From Nanobdellota archaeon (GTDB lineage Archaea > Nanobdellota > Nanobdellia > Pacearchaeales > GW2011-AR1), in assembly GCA_018817905.1 (NCBI GenBank), contig JAHISS010000087.1, forward strand, positions 985-64,984: 64,000 nucleotides of DNA. The letters run 5' to 3'. The position numbers were made by a program, and so were the translations under genes. This document shows positions 5,119 to 36,173 of the stretch, piece after piece (positions within the stretch are counted from its first letter, which is position 1; the number at the start of each line of letters is the position of its first letter). Under the pieces are notes generated by a model. That model did no database searches and was not told the DNA's origin. It worked only from the letters and a program-made list of their open reading frames with translations.

Positions 5119-5394
5119 ATGGATAATCCAACATGGAGTGATATTTTCTCGTCTAATGACGTTTCATTAATAGTTGGTAAACAGCAGATGGAAGGATTTG
5201 TTAATGACTTAGGTAATGAGAAAGATGAAAGCGGATTTTTAATAGACTCAAATGATAAAAAGAGAGTGATTTCACAAGACGAGGATGAAATTAAACTAAA
5301 AGAATTGGGGAGCATTTCTTCTGGTTCTAAGATTTTTATAAAAGATAATCTTGCAAGTTATGCGGAGTTCTTAGCCCAGAAAAGAAGTTTGTAG
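5119..5394 (+). CDS. hypothetical acidic protein (91 aa)
   Basis: ORF opposite in strand to secY and the r-operon. 2-nt gap to the next ORF. No family recognised. Confidence 0.5.
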   Translation: MDNPTWSDIFSSNDVSLIVGKQQMEGFVNDLGNEKDESGFLIDSNDKKRVISQDEDEIKLKELGSISSGSKIFIKDNLASYAEFLAQKRSL

Positions 5395-5396
5395 CG

Positions 5397-6263
5397 ATGA
5401 CTGACGTTGTTTCTGTTGTCTTAGCTATTAAAAGTGTTTGGGAAGCAATAAAAGGAACACGAGAGTTAAAAAAAGTTGACCTGCCTTTAGCAATGAACGG
5501 AGAAGCTAGAAAAGATTTTCTAAACAACAATCCCAATTCTACCATAATCAATATAGCCGGTAATTGTTATATCGGAGATAAATCTCAAATAACTCAAGAA
5601 GAAAAGGATAAACTGAAAGAAATTTATAATCCAACAACACAAAGTGAAAAAAATTATGATATAATAGATACTGATTTTTTTGGAAGAATTCAAGAGTTCA
5701 AAAAAGAGCTTCCAGATAACAAGTCAATTAATCCTTTTCTTAAATTTCTTGAGCATGATTTAAGAACAATCTTGAATCTATCAATTTATTCAAAAAAACT
5801 GTTTGATAATAAAGAAGGAGAAAAAGCTCAAAAAGTTAGAGATGATATTGGTAAGCAGTATGGAAAAGGTGGAAGAAAACTTTGTAATTTATATCTTTCG
5901 GGTTATATAGATGGTATGACTGAATTCCTCATACAAGAATATGGGGACAACTTAGAAAAGGTGAAATCAGATATAAACAACAAAATAAGAAAATTTGTTG
6001 AAGATTCCGACTATATTTTTTTCGTACATTCCAGCTCAGATGAAAACCACATATTAAACAATATCCTAGAGTGTATTAATCAGGGCAGACCATACATCGC
6101 AATACATGGCGCTGGACCCACAAATATAAAAAAAGTCAGGAACATAATCTCAAAAATAGAAGGAGAACTTTCCAGTTTCGGATATGATAAAAATGAAGAT
6201 AATAAAAGAACACTTTCGCTCTGCCCTTTACTATACGTGTATTTGACAAAAAAGAAGATTTGA
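5397..6263 (+). CDS. hypothetical protein (288 aa)
   Basis: Long clean ORF coupled to 5119-5394. No motif recognised. Confidence 0.55.
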   Translation: MTDVVSVVLAIKSVWEAIKGTRELKKVDLPLAMNGEARKDFLNNNPNSTIINIAGNCYIGDKSQITQEEKDKLKEIYNPTTQSEKNYDIIDTDFFGRIQEFKKELPDNKSINPFLKFLEHDLRTILNLSIYSKKLFDNKEGEKAQKVRDDIGKQYGKGGRKLCNLYLSGYIDGMTEFLIQEYGDNLEKVKSDINNKIRKFVEDSDYIFFVHSSSDENHILNNILECINQGRPYIAIHGAGPTNIKKVRNIISKIEGELSSFGYDKNEDNKRTLSLCPLLYVYLTKKKI

Positions 6264-25557: not shown

Positions 25558-27492
25558 ATGGAAGAGTCGGTAGAGGCGAGGGAGATTAGGGGTTGGAAAC
25601 TTAAGCTTGTTTGGGCGTGGGTTTTGACTATTCCGATAATGTTGATAATGTATTCTGGAATGGTTTTTGGGATTGAGATTGTGCCAATGAAGTATATGCC
25701 TATTTCTCTGCTTATTTTAGGATTTCCAGTTATATTTATTATTGGATGGGGAACTATTAAAGCTGGGACTAGGGGATTTTTTAAGTTAAGATTTAGTATG
25801 GACTCTTTGATTTCAATGGGGACAATTGTTGCGTACGCGACAGGGTTTTTGGCGTTTTTTGAATTGACGCAAGATTATTCTGGTGTGAGTTCTATGATTA
25901 TGACTATTTTTATTACTGGGAAATTTATAGAATCAAAGGCAAGGGGGCAGGCAAGTAAAGAGATAAAGAAGTTACTGGAGTTGGGAGCTAAGAAAGCGGT
26001 GGTTTTGCGGGGAAAGAAAGAAGTTGAAGTTCCGATTGAAGAAGTTGGGGTTGGCGACATTTTTATTGTGAAACCAGGGGAGAAAATTCCTACGGACGGG
26101 GTTGTTACAAGGGGCGAGAGCACAGTTGATGAAAGCATGGTTACTGGAGAAAGCCTGCCTGTTGACAAGACTGTAAAAAGTCATGTGATTGGGGCGACGA
26201 TAAATCAGGACGGTGTCTTATATGTTAAAGCGAGCAAGGTCGGCGATGATACTTTTCTTGCCCATATTATTGAATTAGTTGAGGAGGCGCAGGGCACGAA
26301 AATTCCGATACAGAAATTTGCAGATAGTGTTACAAATGTTTTTGTTCCGATTATATTGACTGTTGCGGTCTTGACGTTTATTGGATGGATTGCTGCGACA
26401 GGAGATTGGAGCCGATCTATCGGGGTGGGCATATCTGTTTTAGTTATTGCGTGTCCGTGCGCTTTAGGTTTAGCGACGCCGATTGCGTTAATGGTTGGAA
26501 GTGGGATGGGTGCTAAGAAGGGGATATTGATTAGAAAAGGAGAAGCGATTCAGACAATGAAAGAAATCAAGATAATTGTTTTTGATAAGACCGGGACAAT
26601 AACGAAAGGAAAGCCAGAGGTGACTGATGTTTATTCAGTTCTGAAGAAAAATGAGGCGAGCGTGATTGAGAAAACTGCTGCGCTTGAGAAATTGAGCGAG
26701 CATCCTATTGGGAAGGCGATTGTTGAGTATGGGAATCTTTCTAAATTCAAAAACGTTACAAAATTTAAAATTCTTCGGGGGCGGGGTGTTGAAGGAGTTT
26801 TAGATAAAAAGAAGATGTTAATTGGCAATACTGCGTTGATGAAAGAGAGAAATGTGGACATTAGTAAGATTAAGGAAGTGTTAGAAGAATATGAAACTGG
26901 CGGGAAGACAACTATGATTGTTGCCGAGGGCGGGAAGGTTATCGGAGTTATTGCGGTTGCCGATACTGTGAAGGAAGAATCAAAGAAAGTAATTCATTAT
27001 TTGAGAAGGCAAGGATTTAGAACTGTGATGATTACTGGTGATAATGAAAGAACTGCGAAGGCGATTGCAAAGCAAGTTGGGATTGATGAGGTCATTGCAA
27101 ATGTTTTGCCAGAGGACAAATCCAACAAAGTTAAAGAGCTTCAGAAAAGGGGAATGGTTGCTTTTGTTGGGGACGGGATTAACGATGCTCCGGCGTTGAA
27201 GCAGGCGAATGTTGGTATTGCAATGGGGACTGGGACTGATATTGCAATTGAGGCCGGCGACATTGTTTTGGCGAGCGGCTCTTTACGAGGTGTGCCGCAG
27301 GCGATTGTGTTATCTAAAGCTACGTTTGGGAAAATAAAACAGAATTTGTTCTGGGCGTTTGCTTACAATGTTGTTGCTATTCCGTTGGCTATTGCTGGTT
27401 TTTTGCATCCAGTTATTGCAGAGATTGCAATGGCTTTGTCATCGATAACTGTTGTCACTAATGCGAACTTGCTACGACGAAAGCGAATCTAA
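25558..27492 (+). CDS. copA: P1B-type copper-translocating ATPase (no N-terminal HMA domain)
   Basis: 644 aa. CPC motif [37 protein letters not shown]. Confidence 0.93.
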
Positions 27493-28783: not shown

Positions 28784-29083
28784 TTATGAATTCACTTGTT
28801 GTTTTCTTTGTTTAATTTTTCCAATGACCAAACCGATTAAAGCCCCTATTAAAAAATATGTTATTGGAGCAGTTATAATCCCAAAATATATCGGTCCAAA
28901 ACCACGCCAGCCACCCCCACTAATAGCAACAAGTAATAATCCATTTGGGACATTGAGAACCATTAACGGTCCGACTGATGGCATAATGCTATAAGCCGCG
29001 CCTAAAAAATATCCTAAAATTCCAACTAGGGAGATGCCTAGTCCAATCAGTCCTCCCTTTAGCCAAGTCTTCATAAAGAACAA
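28784..29083 (-). CDS. small Gly-rich polytopic membrane protein (99 aa)
   Basis: Three hydrophobic segments (GLIGLGISLVGILGYFLGAAY, LLLVAISGGGW, ITYFLIGALIGLVIG). No family recognised. Confidence 0.5.
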   Translation of the reverse strand: MFFMKTWLKGGLIGLGISLVGILGYFLGAAYSIMPSVGPLMVLNVPNGLLLVAISGGGWRGFGPIYFGIITAPITYFLIGALIGLVIGKIKQRKQQVNS

Positions 29084-29202
29084 ACGAATAAAACTATTAT
29101 AAATCTTCCTAAATAACCATCTCCTTACTATCTCTCAAATTTCTTTTATAAAAAATTATCTTTTCTTGGGGGACAAATTATTTACTAATCGTCCTGCTTG
29201 AA

Positions 29203-30141
29203 TCAAAAAGGCAACGTCTTAACATTACCTTCGTTTTCCATTAGAAGTAATTCTGAGTCTTGAATGTCTTGTTGAAAAGTTGAGTTAATGTCTTTTATAG
29301 CGTCTCGGAGTTCTTTTTCTTCTTGATAGAAGAACTGGATAATGCAGTTGTATTTTGAGATTCCGAAGACAAGCGCGTTGATGTTTTTGTGCTGCTGGCA
29401 AAAACTCTTGATTTTGTTTTTTTCTAAGGGGTTTAGCTTTAGCTTGAGTGCTGCAAAGTTGAATCCGAGTTTTTCCATGTCGAATTGGATTCTGTTGCCT
29501 AAAATGATTTTCTTTTTGTAAAGTTGTTTTAATTTGTAAGCTATTAGTTCTCCTGAGAGATTTATTTTTTTTGAGAGATCGGTGATCTTTGCTCTGCCAT
29601 TTGTTTCTAGTGCTTTCATTAATGCAATATCTTTTTGCTGTAGCGTTACTTTTGCGACTGGTTGCATGAATGTGTACGTTTCCGCTTCTTTTTGCTCTCC
29701 AAAAGTCTTTAGAGGATATAATGAGGACGAGGTTGTCGTGAAAACTTCATAATGGGTAATTTCTTTATTCTCTTTTAGAAGATTGCTGAATTTCTCTTCA
29801 AATTCGTCCTTGTCCTTGAAAACAAAGTCTACAAATAAGTCATATTTCGAAAGCGTTTCTCCGACGGAGACTACATTGGGACTTTTCTCTAAACTGCTCT
29901 TTATCTGTTGTTTTTTGGAAGAGACTTTTAACCAGACGATTATGAACTCGTTATAACCGAGAAGAGCGTAATTGAAAATTGTGACATATTTCTTTATGAA
30001 CCCTTGCGACTCAAATTTTTTCAATCGGTATTCTGCCTGGTCGCGTGAAATTCTACAGGCTTTTGCTATCTGAGTTATTGGTTTTCTGTAGCTATGGTAA
30101 AGATATTTTATTAGTTTTTTGTCTATTGCGTCTAGTTTCAT
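29203..30141 (-). CDS. tandem Lrp/AsnC-type HTH transcriptional regulator
   Basis: 312 aa with two HTH_AsnC-like modules (LDAIDKKLIKYLYHSYRKPITQIAKACRISRDQAEYRLKKFESQGFIKKY and LQQKDIALMKALETNGRAKITDLSKKINLSGELIAYKLKQL). Each is followed by a RAM-like half. Confidence 0.75.
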   Translation of the reverse strand: MKLDAIDKKLIKYLYHSYRKPITQIAKACRISRDQAEYRLKKFESQGFIKKYVTIFNYALLGYNEFIIVWLKVSSKKQQIKSSLEKSPNVVSVGETLSKYDLFVDFVFKDKDEFEEKFSNLLKENKEITHYEVFTTTSSSLYPLKTFGEQKEAETYTFMQPVAKVTLQQKDIALMKALETNGRAKITDLSKKINLSGELIAYKLKQLYKKKIILGNRIQFDMEKLGFNFAALKLKLNPLEKNKIKSFCQQHKNINALVFGISKYNCIIQFFYQEEKELRDAIKDINSTFQQDIQDSELLLMENEGNVKTLPF

Positions 30142-30240
30142 TTTGGCATTGCTAAATACGGAAAGAATTGCTTAAATATCTTTTGTTTTTTAGGAAAATC
30201 TGGGGGATGTTTTTATGTATTTCTGGAGCTAGTAAAGAAC

Positions 30241-30456
30241 ATGGCAGTAGGATTGTCGGGATCGAACGGTGGAATCGGAAGAGTTTACAGAGCAGTGCTA
30301 GTGGCAGATGTCGAAGCGGGAATTACAAAGTACGAAACGCTTAGAAGTCAGATTCCTGAGGAAAATAGAGAAGTTAGAACAATGTATTCTGGGTTTATAG
30401 AGTCTTTGAGGGAGTTGCAGGCGAGCATGACTAAAGATAACCCAAGGGGTGACTAA
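30241..30456 (+). CDS. small protein (71 aa) coupled to the radical SAM gene
   Basis: MAVGLSGSNGGIGRVYRAV... shares a GxSGSxGGxG[RK] N-terminal motif with the downstream enzyme. 8-nt overlap with its GTG start. Confidence 0.55.
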   Translation: MAVGLSGSNGGIGRVYRAVLVADVEAGITKYETLRSQIPEENREVRTMYSGFIESLRELQASMTKDNPRGD

Positions 30457-31498
30457 AGTGGTCTTGGGATTTTCTGGTTCTAGTGGGGGCGTTGGTAAAG
30501 AAACTTTTGGGAAAGTTGGTTTAGTTAATCGGCCTTTAGAAGTTTCTTATTTTGTTAATAATCGATGCAATCTAAGTTGCAGACATTGTTATGTTGGATA
30601 TGAGCAGACTGATGGGGAATTGTCTGTTGGTGAATGGAGTGAAACGTTTGATAGGCTTATTGAGATGGGTGCTTTGACTTTTGGGAATGTTGGCAAGGAA
30701 CCTTTGCTTTCTTCGGATAAGACTATTGCTATTATGCAACACTTGGCTAAGAGGCGGGAGGAAATCCCTGCCTTGAGGTTTGGATTTGTCACGAATGGAA
30801 CTCTCCTTGACTGTAGAATGGTTGAAGATTTAGAAAGAATTTCTCCCGATTACATTGATGTAAGTTTAGATGGCGGCAGAAAAGTTCATGATTTTATTCG
30901 TGGAGATTATAATTATATTAGAACAGTTAGGAAACTTAGAGGTCTTCCTTCTGGTTTAACTGAGAAAGTTTTCTTAAGTTTTACTTTGATGAAGCCGAAT
31001 GTGGGAGAGTTTAGAGGGGTTGTTGGAGATATGAGTGCGTTGGGTTTAACAAAATTTCTTGTTTCTCCGTATGTTGCGACTCCTGGATCAAATGGAGAAT
31101 TGTTTATTAGTGATGAGGAAGTTGTCGATTTTTACGAACGAGTTGCTGATGGCTCTGAAATAAAGTTTGCAGACTTGCCCCAGATAGAAATAATCCTGAA
31201 ATCGGATTACGATTCTCAAAAAGCATTAATGGATAGATTAGTTGAACGGGGCGTAATTGATTTAGGAAATCTGTCAATAGATGAGTACGGAGTGATATTC
31301 AATAGGCACGTGCAAGGTGGTGGTTCAGAGGTTGTTGTTAATTACATGCCTTTTTCAGACACTCTCTCTAGGGCTGTTAGAATAAGCCATGATGGTTATG
31401 TTGGCGGTTGTTTAGAAATGTTTCACAAGGACTATCCTGAAAGAGCAAGGGCAAACTTGCGAGATAAGAAAATTGAAGAAATCCTCGGTAGAAATTAA
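30449..31498 (+). CDS. radical SAM enzyme (no SPASM/twitch Cys cluster visible)
   Basis: 349 aa. CNLSCRHCY (CX3CX2C), GKEPLL, VTNGTLL, VSLDGGRKVHDFIRG. The C-terminal half has a single Cys. GTG start. Confidence 0.85.
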   Translation: MTKVVLGFSGSSGGVGKETFGKVGLVNRPLEVSYFVNNRCNLSCRHCYVGYEQTDGELSVGEWSETFDRLIEMGALTFGNVGKEPLLSSDKTIAIMQHLAKRREEIPALRFGFVTNGTLLDCRMVEDLERISPDYIDVSLDGGRKVHDFIRGDYNYIRTVRKLRGLPSGLTEKVFLSFTLMKPNVGEFRGVVGDMSALGLTKFLVSPYVATPGSNGELFISDEEVVDFYERVADGSEIKFADLPQIEIILKSDYDSQKALMDRLVERGVIDLGNLSIDEYGVIFNRHVQGGGSEVVVNYMPFSDTLSRAVRISHDGYVGGCLEMFHKDYPERARANLRDKKIEEILGRN

Positions 31499-32226
31499 TC
31501 GTCCTGCTCAACTCTCGGCGCAAGAACGAAACTTAGGACGACGTCGCCGGTGTGGAAGTCCAGCCGCATTGGATGATTGTCTGAGAAACTCAGGGTCGAC
31601 TGGTTTGAAATCTTTGCTCCTTTGATGAACTTGCTTAGATATTCCAAGGAAAATCTTGCTGTGCTGTTTCCTGAATGGATTTCTGCTTCGTCGGTGGAGA
31701 ATTCTGCTCTCGCGCTGTTTAGGCTGTGGGCTTCAACAACAAACTTGTCTGGTTCGGCTATGAATGTGCAAGCGTCGCTTACGACTGAACAATCTTCGAT
31801 GACTTCAGTTAGGGTGTCTGAATTTATTTTGATAACTGAGTTGAACTCCCATTCTGGCAATGGCTTTTCTTCTGTGTCTGTGTCAATCAAAGCGAGAGAG
31901 AAATCCCGCTTGATTCTGTCTCTTATTGAAAGTTTCAACAGGTTGTCTTGTTTTTCCAAAGTAAGAGCTGCTCCAATCTTGCATCTTCTTAAAACTGCTT
32001 TCAAATTACTCAGATTGACTCCTAACTCCTCTTCTTCTTTGTCTATCTCAAAGTCTGAGAAGAGGGTATTTGGAATTTTAAAATAAATCATTGCGACATT
32101 TGCTGGGTCGATTGCAACAAGGCTCATTCCTTCTTTGTTTATTTTAATTCTCACTTCGGTAACTAACTCTGAAATGATTGTTACAATGTCTGAAAAAATC
32201 TTCGGGTTTTGAAGTGTGAGTTTCAT
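31495..32226 (-). CDS. pcn: DNA polymerase sliding clamp PCNA
   Basis: Track ORF trimmed to MKLTLQNPKIFSDIVTIISELVTEVRIKINKEGMSLVAIDPANVAM (ATG at 32226). 243 aa, typical PCNA. The stop overlaps the radical SAM stop by 4 nt (convergent genes). Confidence 0.9.
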   Translation of the reverse strand: MKLTLQNPKIFSDIVTIISELVTEVRIKINKEGMSLVAIDPANVAMIYFKIPNTLFSDFEIDKEEEELGVNLSNLKAVLRRCKIGAALTLEKQDNLLKLSIRDRIKRDFSLALIDTDTEEKPLPEWEFNSVIKINSDTLTEVIEDCSVVSDACTFIAEPDKFVVEAHSLNSARAEFSTDEAEIHSGNSTARFSLEYLSKFIKGAKISNQSTLSFSDNHPMRLDFHTGDVVLSFVLAPRVEQDD

Positions 32227-32296
32227 GGATTTTGATAAGATAAGAAGGTTAAAAGCTTTGTTGTAGTAAGAGAACAACAAACAATAAATAACCTCC

Positions 32297-33877
32297 TTGA
32301 TTCTCATTGGCGTGGAAGCAAAAGAAAAAAGAGTTCGGGCGATAACAAGTCTTTATTACTCGAATCAGAAGGTTCAGCAGGCGATTTTAGAGTTTGCAAA
32401 AGATAGAGAAGTTGTGCCGCAGTATTTTGAAGGTTTTGGAAAGCGGCCTGACATGCTTCAATACCAATCTGACATTGATGGTTTGGTTAGGAAAGGTGCG
32501 ACGTCTTTTCATGCTTCTGAAGAGTTATGGGAAAATCCCTTGAGCCTTAATTCAGAAATAACGCAGAAAGAAATGACGAAGCTGCGAAAGGGCTGGGATT
32601 TGCTGATTGATATTGACTCGCCTTTTCTTGACTGCTCGAAGATTGCAGCAGGCCTTCTTATCGAAGCTTTAGAACAACATGACGTGAAGAATTATGGCGT
32701 GAAATTTTCAGGAAGCAAAGGTTTCCATTTAATGATTTCTGGAAAAGCATTTCCAAAAGAGTTTGATGATAAAAAAACAAAAGAAATGTTTCCAGACTGG
32801 GCGCGGGTGGTTTGTTCTTATTTGATGGATTACATCAGAAAAGATTATAATGTTATGGCGAGCGAAATTCTTACGGATTTTGATGCGATAAAGCGGCGGA
32901 CAAAATTAACAAAAGAACAATTGCAAGAAGTCAGGTGCAATAAGTGCGGCGGTGTTGCGAGAAAAGGTTCAATTGCAGAGTTTTCCTGCCCTGTGTGCGG
33001 GATGAACGTTAAAAGAAAAAATATCAAAATAACAAAACGAAGATTGAAGTGTTTAAGCAACGACTGCGCTGGAATTTTGGAAATTGGCGATAGTGAGGAA
33101 TTTTATTATTGCGAGGATTGCAAAGACCAAGAAAACGAAAACCTGCAGTTGAATTCAAGCAAGCATCCTGAAAATTTTGAAAAGTTCGAAGGAGTCAGCG
33201 CTGAAAAAGTGGCTTCGCTGGATTTGGTTTTAGTTGCTCCGAGACATTTGTTCAGAATGCCTTACTCGCTTCATGAAAAAACCGCCTTGGCAAGCGTTGT
33301 TCTTTCAAAAAATGAAATTGAAAAATTCTCTCCGAAAGATGCAGATCCTTTGAAAGTTAAAGTCAGGAATTTTATGCCAGAGAATGTTGAAGGTGAGGCG
33401 AAAAAATTATTGAGCAAAGCACTTGATTGGGGAAGGGGAAGGGAAATTGTTCAGAAAGAAATTGAAGAAAAAAGATACAAGGGGAAGAGTTTTGAAAATG
33501 TTGAAATGAAAAACATCAGCGAGGACATGTTTCCGCCTGCGATAAAAAAACTTTTGAAAGGTTTAGAGGAAGGAAGGAAGCGGGGATTGTTTGTTTTGAT
33601 TACTTTTTTGAAAGCAGTTGGCAAGACGCCAGAAGAACTCAATAAAAGTATCAGAGAATGGAACGAAAAAAATGAGCCGCCGCTGAAAGAAGGTTATGTT
33701 AGGAGTCAGATTGAATGGCATCTGAAACAAACAAAGACAATCATCCCGCCAAATTACAGCAATGACGCGTTTTATCGAGACATTGGAATCTTAGACAAAA
33801 AACCGAAAACGAAAAATCCGCTGGTGGATGTTCGGAGGAGGATGTGGGGGCGAAGTGGTGATAATCTGAAAAAATAA
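32297..33877 (+). CDS. priS: DNA primase: PriS catalytic domain fused to a PriL/PriX-like helical C-terminal domain
   Basis: 526 aa. WDLLIDIDSP (DxD), FSGSKGFHLMIS, and a Zn-knuckle insert CNKCGG..CPVCG. The C-terminal FPPAIKKLLKGLEEGRKRGLFVLITFLKAVG resembles a primase large-subunit helical bundle. TTG start at 32297, or GTG at 32312. Confidence 0.8.
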   Translation: MILIGVEAKEKRVRAITSLYYSNQKVQQAILEFAKDREVVPQYFEGFGKRPDMLQYQSDIDGLVRKGATSFHASEELWENPLSLNSEITQKEMTKLRKGWDLLIDIDSPFLDCSKIAAGLLIEALEQHDVKNYGVKFSGSKGFHLMISGKAFPKEFDDKKTKEMFPDWARVVCSYLMDYIRKDYNVMASEILTDFDAIKRRTKLTKEQLQEVRCNKCGGVARKGSIAEFSCPVCGMNVKRKNIKITKRRLKCLSNDCAGILEIGDSEEFYYCEDCKDQENENLQLNSSKHPENFEKFEGVSAEKVASLDLVLVAPRHLFRMPYSLHEKTALASVVLSKNEIEKFSPKDADPLKVKVRNFMPENVEGEAKKLLSKALDWGRGREIVQKEIEEKRYKGKSFENVEMKNISEDMFPPAIKKLLKGLEEGRKRGLFVLITFLKAVGKTPEELNKSIREWNEKNEPPLKEGYVRSQIEWHLKQTKTIIPPNYSNDAFYRDIGILDKKPKTKNPLVDVRRRMWGRSGDNLKK

Positions 33878-34046: not shown

Positions 34047-36173
34047 ATGAGAAAAAAGGTGCTGGCTGGCTTGTTAGTTGTTGCTTTTGTGGCAGTCTTA
34101 TTTTGCGGCCTTGTCACACCAGAAGATGATGACTCTGAAAAAATAAATGCTGCGTTCAATTGTTTGGATGAGAGAGTTGCTGCGACTTCTATCTCTCTTG
34201 AAGAGGCTGTGTTTGCTGCCTTGACAAAAGTTCCTGGAACAAAGGCGGCAGACAAGATAGAACAGGAAAAAAGTTCTTCAGCAGATTGCTGGCCAAAGTC
34301 TGGATGCGGGGTTAAAGAAAGCGCACAAGCTGCCCTGGCAAAATTAAGCATGGGTGAAAGTGTTGAGGAGATTACAGCATGGCTGGTTACAAAAAGCGGA
34401 ATGCCTAAAGAGCTCACTTGGTATCTGCAAATTTCAATAGGCGACAACGGGCCTGCAACATGTGTTGTTAATTACGACGGTTCTGATCATTCTGTAAGCG
34501 TGAACGAAGAAATGAAATTAAGCGGAAGTGCTGGCTCTTGTTTTAACTTGGCAAACTCTGACTATTGGTTGAAGATAAAAACTAACTGCTTAGAAAAAGA
34601 ATTTAACATTCAATGTGATAAAGAATTTAAGACAAATCTTTTGTACGAGAAAAGTTCTGGCGGCACGATTTATGTTTCTTCGCAAACGCATGGGGCAAGT
34701 TCTGGCGCTTGGACGGTTGAAGCAATAACAGCAAGATGTTTCAGGGAAGGGAATGACTGCGATTACGAAGCAAGTTTGTGGGGCGCTGTTGCCCTTTACG
34801 CAAACGGAGAAGATGTTTCTGAATTTGCACCTTACTTGCGGGCGCTTTCCTCGGAAAATGGAAAATATTTCCCAAGCGCTTTTCTTGTCGCTATTTTGGA
34901 AGGTGGGGAAAATCATTATTCTAAAATAATTGAAAACCAGCGAGCCAGACCAGAAGGAGCTTATTGGGAAATGCCCAACACTCCACACAACAAATACTAC
35001 GACACAGCGCTTGGAATGCTTGCCTTGGGCGGCGCTGGCTCTTCGGAGATAACAAACGCAAACACGATTGGTTATTTATTCAAAAAACAAGATGCAAGCG
35101 GCTGCTGGAATAACAACAATATCCGAGATACAGCGTTTTTGATTTATGCTGCGCAATGGTTGCGGGGAACAGGCGGCGGAGTAGAGTGTTATATTAATTC
35201 TGATTGTTCAGAAGGTTACGTTTGCGAGGATGGAAACTGTGTTTCAGAAGCTGTGTTGGAATGCAATAATAACGGCGTGATGAATGATTCTGAACAATGC
35301 GATGGAAACGACTTTGGAACTTTCAGCGATGGCGTTGGTCAATGTGATGAGTATAATTCTGGTTTCACAGGCGGTGATTTAATCTGTGAGGATTGCAAGA
35401 TTAATACAACGCAATGCACTGGAACAGGCCCGCCGCCAGTGGTAAATGGAAGTACTGGCAACGGCACTGATGATGAATCTTATGACCCAAACATGATAAC
35501 AGATTGCGAGTTGGCAAATCTTTTCTGCGCGCCAAGTCGAGCTTCTTGTTTGGAAAATGGCGGGAGTTTTTATCCTCAGGAAACACACGCCTGTGCTGAC
35601 CATTATGAATTTTGCTGCACTGTTGAAACTCCTGAATTGCCGAATTGTTTTAGTTTAGGGGGAAGTGTTTGCGCTTATGAAGAAGAATGCGGCGGCGCGG
35701 TGCAACAGGCCTCTGACGGAGCATGTTGTTTAGATATTTGTGAACTAACTGGAACAACTGGATGCTCTTTGGATAGTGATTGTCTTTCTGGAGAAACATG
35801 CCAAAGTGGTGCATGTGTTTATTCCGGTAGCAGTTCGAATGGGGGCGGTGGAGATGACGATGAAGGTGGAAGCAGTTTATGGATTTGGATTGTTATTCTT
35901 TTGATTTTAATCGGGCTTGTTGTTTTAGGAATAATTTACAGAGATAAAATCAGAGTTTGGTGGTTTAAGTTCAGAGGAAAAGCAAAAACTTCTAAAGTTC
36001 CTCCGGGAAGACCGCCAGGAATGAACTCTTTGATAAGAAGACCAACTCCGAGATTTATGCCTCAGGGGATGAGGACAATGCCTGAGCCTCAGAGAGCTCC
36101 GCCAAAACAAATGTCAAAAAAAGATAAGGAAATGGAAGAGACCTTTAAAAAATTGAAGGAGATTGGGGAATAG
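34047..36173 (+). CDS. cell-surface protein: signal/TM, toroid-like repeat region, Cys-rich modules, C-terminal TM and Pro/Arg-rich tail
   Basis: 708 aa. N-terminal hydrophobic leader. YYDTALGMLALGG and QDASGCWNNNNIRDTAFLIYAAQW recall prenyltransferase/terpene-cyclase-like repeats. Also ECNNNGVMNDSEQCDGND and many further Cys. TM LWIWIVILLILIGLVVLGII. Confidence 0.7.
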   Translation: MRKKVLAGLLVVAFVAVLFCGLVTPEDDDSEKINAAFNCLDERVAATSISLEEAVFAALTKVPGTKAADKIEQEKSSSADCWPKSGCGVKESAQAALAKLSMGESVEEITAWLVTKSGMPKELTWYLQISIGDNGPATCVVNYDGSDHSVSVNEEMKLSGSAGSCFNLANSDYWLKIKTNCLEKEFNIQCDKEFKTNLLYEKSSGGTIYVSSQTHGASSGAWTVEAITARCFREGNDCDYEASLWGAVALYANGEDVSEFAPYLRALSSENGKYFPSAFLVAILEGGENHYSKIIENQRARPEGAYWEMPNTPHNKYYDTALGMLALGGAGSSEITNANTIGYLFKKQDASGCWNNNNIRDTAFLIYAAQWLRGTGGGVECYINSDCSEGYVCEDGNCVSEAVLECNNNGVMNDSEQCDGNDFGTFSDGVGQCDEYNSGFTGGDLICEDCKINTTQCTGTGPPPVVNGSTGNGTDDESYDPNMITDCELANLFCAPSRASCLENGGSFYPQETHACADHYEFCCTVETPELPNCFSLGGSVCAYEEECGGAVQQASDGACCLDICELTGTTGCSLDSDCLSGETCQSGACVYSGSSSNGGGGDDDEGGSSLWIWIVILLILIGLVVLGIIYRDKIRVWWFKFRGKAKTSKVPPGRPPGMNSLIRRPTPRFMPQGMRTMPEPQRAPPKQMSKKDKEMEETFKKLKEIGE

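Follow-up and report, generated by a model that had tools for sequence, protein, structure and literature searches.

In borosin systems, the core peptide resides on the modifying enzyme in some lineages and on a separate open reading frame (ORF) in others. The fused forms (OphMA, types I–III) are single-turnover, whereas the split forms (SonM/SonA, types IV–IX) are multi-turnover, and the precursors carry a helical-bundle binding domain and multi-core repeats. Here, we describe a similar arrangement built around a radical S-adenosylmethionine (SAM) enzyme, encoded in a 64,000-nucleotide (nt) stretch of DNA from a Nanobdellota archaeon (assembly GCA_018817905.1, contig JAHISS010000087.1, positions 985 to 64,984 of the forward strand), hereafter the window, numbered from its first letter. 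Together with a 71-amino acid (aa) mini-protein, the enzyme makes up a conserved two-gene module that has a divergent tandem-Lrp regulator, and both proteins share a homologous, flexible N-terminal element, which we call the tail. We give an even chance to the reading that the tail is the peptide substrate of the enzyme, either attached to it in cis or delivered in trans, much as borosins occur in fused and split forms. The split precursors with a helical binding domain and the multi-core repeats of borosins also have counterparts here. Borosin enzymes, however, are SAM-dependent α-N-methyltransferases and not radical SAM enzymes, and their core is C-terminal, whereas the shared element of the window family occupies the extreme N-terminus. 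The loci of this family also often hold cis and trans copies together, and a modification is so far only proposed.

A radical SAM enzyme accompanied by a small peptide or protein partner is a known kind of system. The sequences and folds closest to the window enzyme are those of SPASM/twitch maturases of RiPPs (peptides synthesized ribosomally and then modified post-translationally), namely CteB, SkfB, and SuiB (also PqqE/PqqA and MftC/MftA), which share its CX3CX2C core and the hairpin that survives in it as a vestige, and for which adjacent small ORFs serve as substrates. The target residues of PqqA and MftA are strongly conserved. Unlike these maturases, the window enzyme has neither a RiPP recognition element (RRE) domain nor a separate RRE protein, lacks the auxiliary [4Fe-4S] cysteines, scores far under the NCBIfam cut-offs, and has a conserved element that is N-terminal and also present on the enzyme itself. 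The radical SAM enzymes of bottromycin biosynthesis are B12-dependent methyltransferases. Bottromycin-type precursors resemble the arrangement considered here in that the modified core stands at the extreme N-terminus with a recognition follower behind it (PMC5103208). In bottromycin biosynthesis, by contrast, precursor and enzyme are not fused, and the core is not Gly/Ser-rich. Finally, radical SAM enzymes act on flexible Ser/Gly-containing protein segments in the anSME/sulfatase, QhpD/QhpC, and PFL-AE systems, the last with PFL and GrcA as targets. GrcA, the PFL spare part, is a small protein that duplicates the motif-bearing module of a larger enzyme. In these systems, by contrast, the target motifs are different (C/S-x-P-x-R for anSME, RVxG[YF] for glycyl radical enzymes), SPASM clusters, absent from the window enzyme, are required by anSME and QhpD, and the motif is not known to occur on the radical SAM enzyme itself.

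The 71-aa protein is encoded at positions 30241–30456 on the forward strand (100% identical to NCBI KJ600_04515) and begins with MAVGLSGSNGGIGRV. The radical SAM enzyme follows on the same strand at positions 30458–31498 (346 aa from the GTG at 30458, or 349 aa from a GTG at 30449), and its ORF contains VVLGFSGSSGGVGK. An earlier note on this DNA had described both ORFs and the pattern h-G-h-S-G-S-x-G-G-h common to their N-termini. We find both ORFs as described, and a six-frame search of the window with the expression G-x-[SL]-G-[ST]-x-G-[GE] returned two matches, only at these N-termini. The tail of the small protein, M-A-V-G-L-S-G-S-N-G-G-I (30241–30276, forward strand), fits the family consensus MAxGFSGSNGGI. 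That of the enzyme, (M)V-L-G-F-S-G-S-S-G-G-V (30458–30493, forward strand), is slightly degenerate when aligned with the near-invariant N-terminus of its family. The small ORF tail (MAVGLSGSNGGIG) is nearer to the consensus than the tail of the window enzyme (MVLGFSGSSGGVG).

An alignment of 107 enzymes from archaea and bacteria gives MA[LIV]G[FWLI]SGSNGG[IV] as the extreme N-terminus of the family, in which conservation reaches 90% or more at each of M, A, G, S, G, S, G, and G. Stop codons lie directly upstream of the tail Met in many loci, and ~20 residues follow the tail, closing in a K-[YW]-hydrophobic element. By this alignment, the motif is the signature N-terminus of the whole enzyme family and not a private likeness of two genes, which makes the small ORF a detached copy of the N-terminal module of the enzyme. 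The earlier note had cautioned that the motif might be a degenerate ParA/MinD Walker A. The SGSSGGVGKET of the window enzyme does resemble GxxxxGK[ST], but the Lys is private to the window sequence; because the family consensus (GSNGGI[TSG]x) contains no Lys, and no Thr either, the Walker A reading fails. The segment is also predicted by AlphaFold2 (AF2) as an unstructured extreme N-terminus instead of a strand-loop-helix, and no P-loop NTPase domain was matched in Pfam or NCBIfam, leaving this or any other P-loop barely credible.

Selection on the tail acts at the protein level, because third codon positions of the motif vary freely (entropy 0.85–1.9 bits over 33 distinct DNA sequences, at least 1.18 except at the two-codon Asn9), Ser8 is encoded by both AGY and TCN codons in the same set, and no Rfam family matches: a scan of positions 29000–32000 found no element. 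An RNA-level cause of the conserved 5′ end was rejected on the same grounds. When 241 million metagenome records were scanned with a degenerate DNA pattern for M-A-[LIVMF]-G-x-S-G-S-N-G-G-[IVM], 70 matches emerged, of which 41 are radical SAM N-termini of the family, ~24 are mini-ORFs, and ~5 are spurious; most of these mini-ORFs share a contig, often a short one, with the enzyme or its regulator. The motif was found in no other protein family, either in these records or among 1.84 billion representative proteins. A signal peptide, a lipobox, and an encapsulin or microcompartment tag were also rejected: the tail has no hydrophobic core, no conserved shell genes lie nearby, and the motif is confined to this family.

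The small protein is conserved in its own right. A profile search of 5.8 billion proteins retrieved 28 clusters (54–106 aa, clustered at 90% identity) that are 35–60% identical and have conserved positions through both predicted helices, with the consensus MAxGFSGSNGGIxEAYRxFxxADVxAGIxKYExLxxxxPxE..LY..I..L..L. A filter-free HMMER search of the 1.84 billion representatives gave only 34 matches; apart from one long spurious protein and one enzyme with tandem tails, all are small proteins, and no match carries a fusion to a further domain. AF2 predicts the 71-aa protein as a two-helix hairpin and not a winged helix-turn-helix (wHTH), with helices at residues 9–37 and 43–65 (predicted local distance difference test, pLDDT, 97–98) and a tail that drops below 50 at residues 1–7. 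A Foldseek search of the hairpin against the Protein Data Bank (PDB) found nothing under E = 1, the top entries, encapsulated-ferritin hairpins, being generic two-helix matches. Aligned by hhalign, the small family and the bacterial enzyme N-termini are homologous with 98% probability over 28 columns. On the strength of this homology, the small protein is a detached copy of the enzyme N-terminal module (the tail plus a helix ending in K-Y) that has been extended into a helical hairpin.

The same homology could suggest that the enzyme 5′ end was duplicated and that the small ORF is a relic of it without function; a 9-nt repeat is local to the junction of the two genes, and tandem duplications of the tail unit recur in the family. 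Conservation through both helices across the 28 clusters, the confidently predicted helices, the coupling of 0–2 nt kept in most loci, and the retention of tail ORFs precisely where the enzyme tail is lost together largely refute this reading, and we consider a relic very improbable.

Comparison of loci shows that the tail is a modular element that can be fused, split, or repeated. The same peptide, on which the enzyme may act, is joined to the enzyme in some lineages and encoded by an ORF of its own in others. In at least four lineages, the enzyme is flanked by tail-bearing mini-ORFs of 35–86 aa, some of which repeat the tail two or three times in tandem. Their C-terminal parts fall into at least four unrelated types, namely the hairpin of DPANN, 59–61-aa proteins of the Candidate Phyla Radiation (CPR), 35–40-aa peptides, and 36–62-aa SGSKGG peptides. 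At locus L091, a 35-aa tail peptide precedes a tail-less enzyme, and at L100 a similar enzyme N-terminus follows a tail and a linker in a single protein. Locus L104 has its tail ORF downstream of a tail-less enzyme, and at L119 two peptides with three tails in total precede an enzyme that has none. The tail is provided in trans only at L002, L003, L032, L104, and L119, while bacterial enzymes carry it in cis only. Several details of these loci were noted in passing. The L091 segment (885–2086) encodes two 35-aa tail peptides, one before the tail-less radical SAM protein (MKFEEWFDEIQ..) and the other before a 206-aa MKFEE.. ORF without an obvious cluster motif. The L100 gene (437–1566) looks interrupted, with ORFs of 151 and 211 aa. 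In L119, which belongs to the SGSKGG lineage, a 94-aa ORF (2436–2720) with no Pfam match on record follows the tail-less enzyme after a 1-nt spacer.

Tandem tails stand before a single K-Y helix. Three are found in peptide P0166 and two in P0165, P0172, P0161, P0164, and P0123–P0125; among enzymes, P0026, P0117, and L073 have two. The contigs of P0166 and P0172 are too short to show the enzyme. Each repeat restarts with Met-Ala, usually after Lys (..GGIxK-MAxG..), in all of these proteins and in P0147; the restarts could be alternative starts or a processing site, or M-A could be part of the recognized element.

Loss or degeneration of the tail is limited to DPANN enzymes when loci are chosen by the enzyme core alone. 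Seven enzymes are affected (L002, L003, L004, L032, the window enzyme, L035, and L034), and tail ORFs stand beside five or six of the seven: the upstream tail ORF of L035 is itself degenerate, and L034 has none. Tail-less enzymes therefore nearly always have a tail-bearing neighbor, and, L034 apart, all partnerless enzymes keep the tail, with a single substitution in two bacterial ones. In place of hairpin ORFs, the nanoarchaeotal L034 has a 234-aa ORF (5271–5975; MALSAGYVDES...) upstream of its tail-less enzyme.

A similar small ORF lies directly next to both close and distant homologs of the enzyme, in DPANN and in several loci each of Patescibacteria and of metagenomes, and three kinds of neighborhood can be distinguished. 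In the 14 DPANN loci, a divergent tandem Lrp gene is followed by zero to two hairpin ORFs and the radical SAM gene, with at least one hairpin ORF in 10 of the 14. Patescibacteria have a divergent TrmB-like regulator, sometimes an unrelated 59–61-aa tail ORF, and then the radical SAM gene. In 12–13 loci of other bacteria from several phyla, an Opp/Sap/Nik-type ABC importer and a ThsA-like SIR2_2 protein precede the radical SAM gene without a small ORF; non-CPR bacterial homologs mostly lack one and have the tail in cis only. This cassette (L008–L011, L016, L017, L019, L021, L022, L025, L026, L028, and L029) lies ~0–6 kb upstream of the radical SAM match. Its importer parts are an ATPase with oligo_HPY, a family-5 binding protein, and two permeases; the SIR2_2 gene is directly upstream of the radical SAM gene, often coupled to it, and the radical SAM gene is the last of the series.

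The enzyme belongs to the radical SAM superfamily (Pfam PF04055, 55 bits against a cut-off of 29.5). The motif blocks listed in the earlier note are present and invariant in the family. Specifically, CNLSCRHC (30566–30589, forward strand) provides C40, C44, and C47 (349-aa numbering), the CX3CX2C residues that ligate the radical SAM [4Fe-4S] cluster; all three are invariant in the 107 sequences. The 'GGE'-type SAM-binding motif G-K-E-P follows at 30692–30703 on the forward strand (G82 and E84 invariant, K83 and P85 at least 90% conserved), and TNGTLL and SLDG..HD..RG complete the series. At least 229 relatives are 42–67% identical over the full length. They come from DPANN archaea (Woese-, Pace-, Nano-, Aenigm-, and Nanohaloarchaeota), from Patescibacteria/CPR, and from anaerobic or microaerophilic bacteria (among them Desulfobacteraceae, Brocadia, Scalindua, Methyloglobulus, Sulfuritalea, Magnetococcales, Myxococcota, and Rhodothermaceae).

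The earlier note had seen no SPASM or twitch cysteines, and in the 107 sequences C321 is indeed the sole conserved Cys outside CX3CX2C. It lies in S-H-D-G-Y-V-G-G-C (31385–31411, forward strand), a vestigial SPASM/twitch β-hairpin in which H314, G316, and C321 are invariant and S313 and D315 are at least 90% conserved; the C-terminal part as a whole retains R-I-S-H-D-G-Y-V-x-x-C with this one Cys. The Pfam SPASM score is below threshold in the window enzyme (14 bits against 21.5), and several homologs have a precomputed SPASM match. Because the hairpin SHDGYVxxC is kept and the auxiliary Cys residues are gone, the enzyme is a SPASM/twitch-derived radical SAM protein that has lost its auxiliary clusters. 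Pfam detected no RRE or PqqD match in the enzyme or the small ORF.

The AF2 model of the enzyme has a mean pLDDT of 91.5 and matches radical SAM structures at E 1e-11. About 30 residues precede β-1 and are predicted to be disordered, with pLDDT below 50 at residues 1–13 and 18–20, so that the tail is predicted to be flexible in both the enzyme and the small protein. The top Foldseek matches in the PDB are CteB, SkfB, and SuiB; viperin, MoaA, and anSME come next, and the PDB sequence matches are likewise CteB and SkfB. No curated family claims the enzyme: the best NCBIfam matches (NirJ, AhbC, and RiPP maturases) score 44–61 bits against cut-offs of 340–650, placing it outside known housekeeping clades. 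An anSME/AslB identity, the name used in some JGI records, was rejected: the SPASM Cys residues are absent, the tail lacks P-x-R, and anSME is a mid-rank fold match.

Prokaryotic viperins show a weak similarity (PADLOC pVip, 37–51 bits, confined to the radical SAM core); the NCBIfam viperin score is 35 bits against a cut-off of 180, and viperin structures rank under RiPP maturases among the fold matches. The pVip matches raise a further possibility, namely that the locus is a conflict system in which the enzyme is a toxic or viperin-like antiviral effector and the mini-protein or cis tail a pseudo-substrate inhibitor. The small upstream ORF tightly coupled to the enzyme recalls the layout of type II toxin–antitoxin pairs, and a ThsA-like SIR2 gene is adjacent in bacteria. 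Yet no PADLOC model fits past generic radical SAM or SIR2 similarity. No family members were found on viral contigs, the complete importer of the bacterial cassette, dependent on a substrate-binding protein (SBP), is atypical of defense islands, and the module is stable beside housekeeping genes in the reduced genomes of DPANN and CPR. A toxin–antitoxin or defense function is therefore improbable.

How might the module work if the tail is a substrate? The tail would be the substrate or core, and the K-[YW] helix or hairpin behind it the docking element. Reductive cleavage of SAM would yield a 5′-deoxyadenosyl radical that takes a hydrogen from a residue of the invariant S-G-S/G-G segment, either a Ser Cβ or a Gly/Ser Cα, with oxidation, epimerization, or a cross-link as candidate outcomes. 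Invariant C321 and H314, together with D315 (at least 90% conserved), could serve as hydrogen donor or base. Most bacteria would have this substrate joined to the enzyme itself; modification would for this reason occur in cis or within an oligomer and would probably be single-turnover. DPANN and Patescibacteria present the tail in trans as well, or exclusively so, on cheap mini-proteins encoded 0–2 nt from the enzyme, which would make multiple turnover possible, and the operon would be regulated by the Lrp protein.

The suggestion in the earlier note that the enzyme is paired with a small substrate, carrier, or partner protein through a functional shared motif is supported by adjacency, conservation, and the absence of a known housekeeping clade. 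The motif could be a recognition or docking element, as the note proposed, or a substrate, and the tandem multi-tail peptides favor a substrate. Five observations argue for the tail as substrate. Multi-tail peptides with a single K-Y helix fit multi-core precursors and not leader or docking peptides; cis and trans copies of the tail coexist; the tail is disordered in the AF2 models; the fold of the enzyme resembles that of RiPP maturases; and the architecture closely parallels fused (single-turnover) and split (multi-turnover) borosins.

Other considerations weigh against a substrate role. All of the support is comparative, and a modification of the tail itself is only proposed. Core conservation this strict across phyla is unusual for RiPPs and would fit a cofactor-like product, a structural role, or a docking role equally well. 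A conserved protease or exporter was not found beside the DPANN or CPR loci, and the Opp-type importer and SIR2-like partners of non-CPR bacteria are not explained by it. A self-modifying radical SAM enzyme would be without precedent, many peptide-oxidizing relatives need the auxiliary clusters that are absent here, and AF2, judged by pLDDT and secondary structure, docks the tail nowhere.

Part of this evidence is accommodated by an unmodified tail that acts as a docking, activating, or lid element, either a leader in cis or a Gly-rich lid of the active site. The mini-proteins would then serve as regulatory or auxiliary subunits, either activating the enzyme by bringing the lid in trans or acting as competitive decoys, and the true substrate would be something else; where bacteria have an Opp importer, it could for instance be a peptide or small molecule that is taken up. 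The extreme conservation of the motif across phyla is consistent with such a role, as are the non-CPR bacteria, which have a cis copy only, beside an SBP-dependent importer and a SIR2-like gene. A split enzyme would also be expected to keep a tail-bearing neighbor, as tail-less enzymes nearly always do, and the local regulators, Lrp and TrmB, are of ligand-sensing types. On the other hand, peptides with two or three tails are hard to reconcile with a lid or a leader, many loci combine an intact cis tail with one or two trans copies, the tail is disordered and not packed in the AF2 models, and the closest folds are those of peptide-modifying enzymes. We regard an unmodified docking or lid element, the main alternative, as unlikely, but well short of negligible.

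The substrate reading can be developed into a more specific proposal, which is tentative and somewhat doubtful. The family may be the first radical SAM analog of the borosins in its logic: an enzyme that primes or sacrifices itself, its own N-terminal tail being the core. In DPANN and Patescibacteria, that core would have been split off to mini-scaffold proteins, in some cases as two or three copies in tandem, allowing multiple turnover. Because the core is near-invariant from archaea to Proteobacteria, an antibiotic would be a less likely product than a conserved metabolite or cofactor derived from a peptide, or a cofactor derived from a protein; in free-living anaerobes, the product would be linked to the Opp-type importer and the SIR2-like enzyme.

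The arrangement of the family is undescribed in Pfam, NCBIfam, PADLOC, or the searchable literature. A search for the motif string SGSNGG found no literature, and publications on radical SAM with SIR2 and Opp, on DPANN with RiPPs, and on follower or fused precursors do not describe the family. What appears to be new is a family without auxiliary clusters or an RRE that is defined by an invariant N-terminal tail, together with the occurrence of the same tail on adjacent mini-ORFs, recurrent fused/split transitions, and tandem tails. The system thereby yields a sharply defined 12-residue candidate substrate for an uncharacterized enzyme clade. It is also among the few accessory modules of DPANN and CPR organisms that are conserved and span lineages; the biochemistry of these organisms is largely uncharted, and little biochemistry is known in its hosts in general (DPANN, CPR, anammox bacteria, and sulfate reducers). 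If the tail is a core, the fused-precursor concept would extend from methyltransferases and BURP cyclases to radical chemistry; if it is a detachable lid or regulator, it would represent a new mode of radical SAM enzyme control.

The regulator gene completes the locus. As the earlier note had recognized, a divergent tandem-Lrp gene lies at 29203–30141 on the reverse strand; it encodes a 312-aa Lrp/AsnC-type transcription regulator with two wHTH and ligand-domain repeats (Pfam HTH_24, HTH_AsnC-type, and AsnC_trans_reg). It is syntenic in all 14 DPANN loci, and a tandem Lrp gene lies divergently upstream of the radical SAM gene in 16 of 55 metagenome loci. The intergenic region (30142–30240) presumably contains the promoters and the operator for the Lrp gene and for the operon of the small ORF and enzyme, as judged from the gene layout alone. 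The protein scores 82 bits on the Lrp NCBIfam model, and its best PDB sequence matches are the FL11/PH1519 regulators and not AhbA/B or NirDL. Because the gene is invariably divergent from the operon in DPANN and a TrmB-like substitute occurs in CPR, the evidence points to a local regulator and not an AhbAB-like enzyme. Weaker matches to AhbA (36 bits) and AhbB (23 bits), together with NirJ, NirJ1, and AhbC as the best NCBIfam matches of the enzyme, would also be compatible with a remnant of an alternative heme or heme d1 pathway, in which the enzyme is NirJ/AhbC/AhbD-like and the tandem Lrp protein a fused AhbAB/NirDL siroheme decarboxylase. The higher score on true Lrp models, the FL11-type PDB matches, and the TrmB-like regulator that takes its place in CPR all speak against this. 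The enzyme reaches only 56–61 bits against cut-offs of 515–650, it lacks the SPASM cysteines of NirJ/Ahb, and no other tetrapyrrole genes occur among the conserved neighbors. Such a pathway remnant is extremely improbable.

At the junction of the two genes, the earlier note had proposed an 8-nt overlap, which requires the GTG at 30449. The GTG at 30458 is most likely the start, because it yields MVLGFSGS in the family register M-x-x-G, the 346-aa form is on record at NCBI (MBU0761179.1), and a Shine-Dalgarno-like box, AGGGGTGA, read by eye at 30445–30452 on the forward strand within the small ORF 3′ end, lies 5 nt ahead of it. The 349-aa form of the exact sequence is not on record there. The small ORF stops at TAA 30454–30456, so the overlap gives way to a 1-nt spacer. 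The coupling inferred in the note nevertheless stands, since spacers are 0–2 nt in eight of nine distinct related DPANN loci with hairpin ORFs. The position of the AGGGGTGA box would support termination-reinitiation coupling of the small ORF and the enzyme. The 9-nt direct repeat reported around the junction is present as two forward-strand copies of TGACTAAAG (30428–30436 and 30450–30458) that flank the stop/start junction, each encoding M/V-T-K. Two copies are also reached in 15 of 100 shuffles of the window, so the TGACTAAAG repeat, possibly a small local duplication, is not significant alone.

The Arg bias noticed in both proteins is confirmed: R/(R+K) is 0.78 in the small ORF and 0.60 in the enzyme, compared with 0.30 ± 0.11 in 33 long ORFs of the window. 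This composition may reflect acquisition of the two genes from a higher-GC DPANN relative, for example of the L002 type. The G+C content of the small ORF is 0.449 and that of the window 0.38, and the neighbors of the two Arg-rich genes are Lys-rich.

Several surrounding genes in the window were also recorded. Downstream of the enzyme, a PCNA gene on the reverse strand (31495–32307) is divergent from a forward-strand gene (32297–33877) for a 526-aa protein that matches small- and large-subunit primase domains, resembling a PriS/PriL fusion. This gene pair, taken with the annotation of P0121, identifies the window as part of a nanoarchaeotal (DPANN) genome. A forward-strand gene in the ORF list (34047–36173) encodes a 708-aa protein whose N-terminus is signal-like and which, besides numerous Cys-rich repeats, has a transmembrane segment at its C-terminus and a tail rich in Pro and Arg. 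On the other side of the locus, a forward-strand gene (25558–27492) encodes a 644-aa P-type ATPase with CPC and DKTGT motifs, identified by eye, that is probably a heavy-metal pump.

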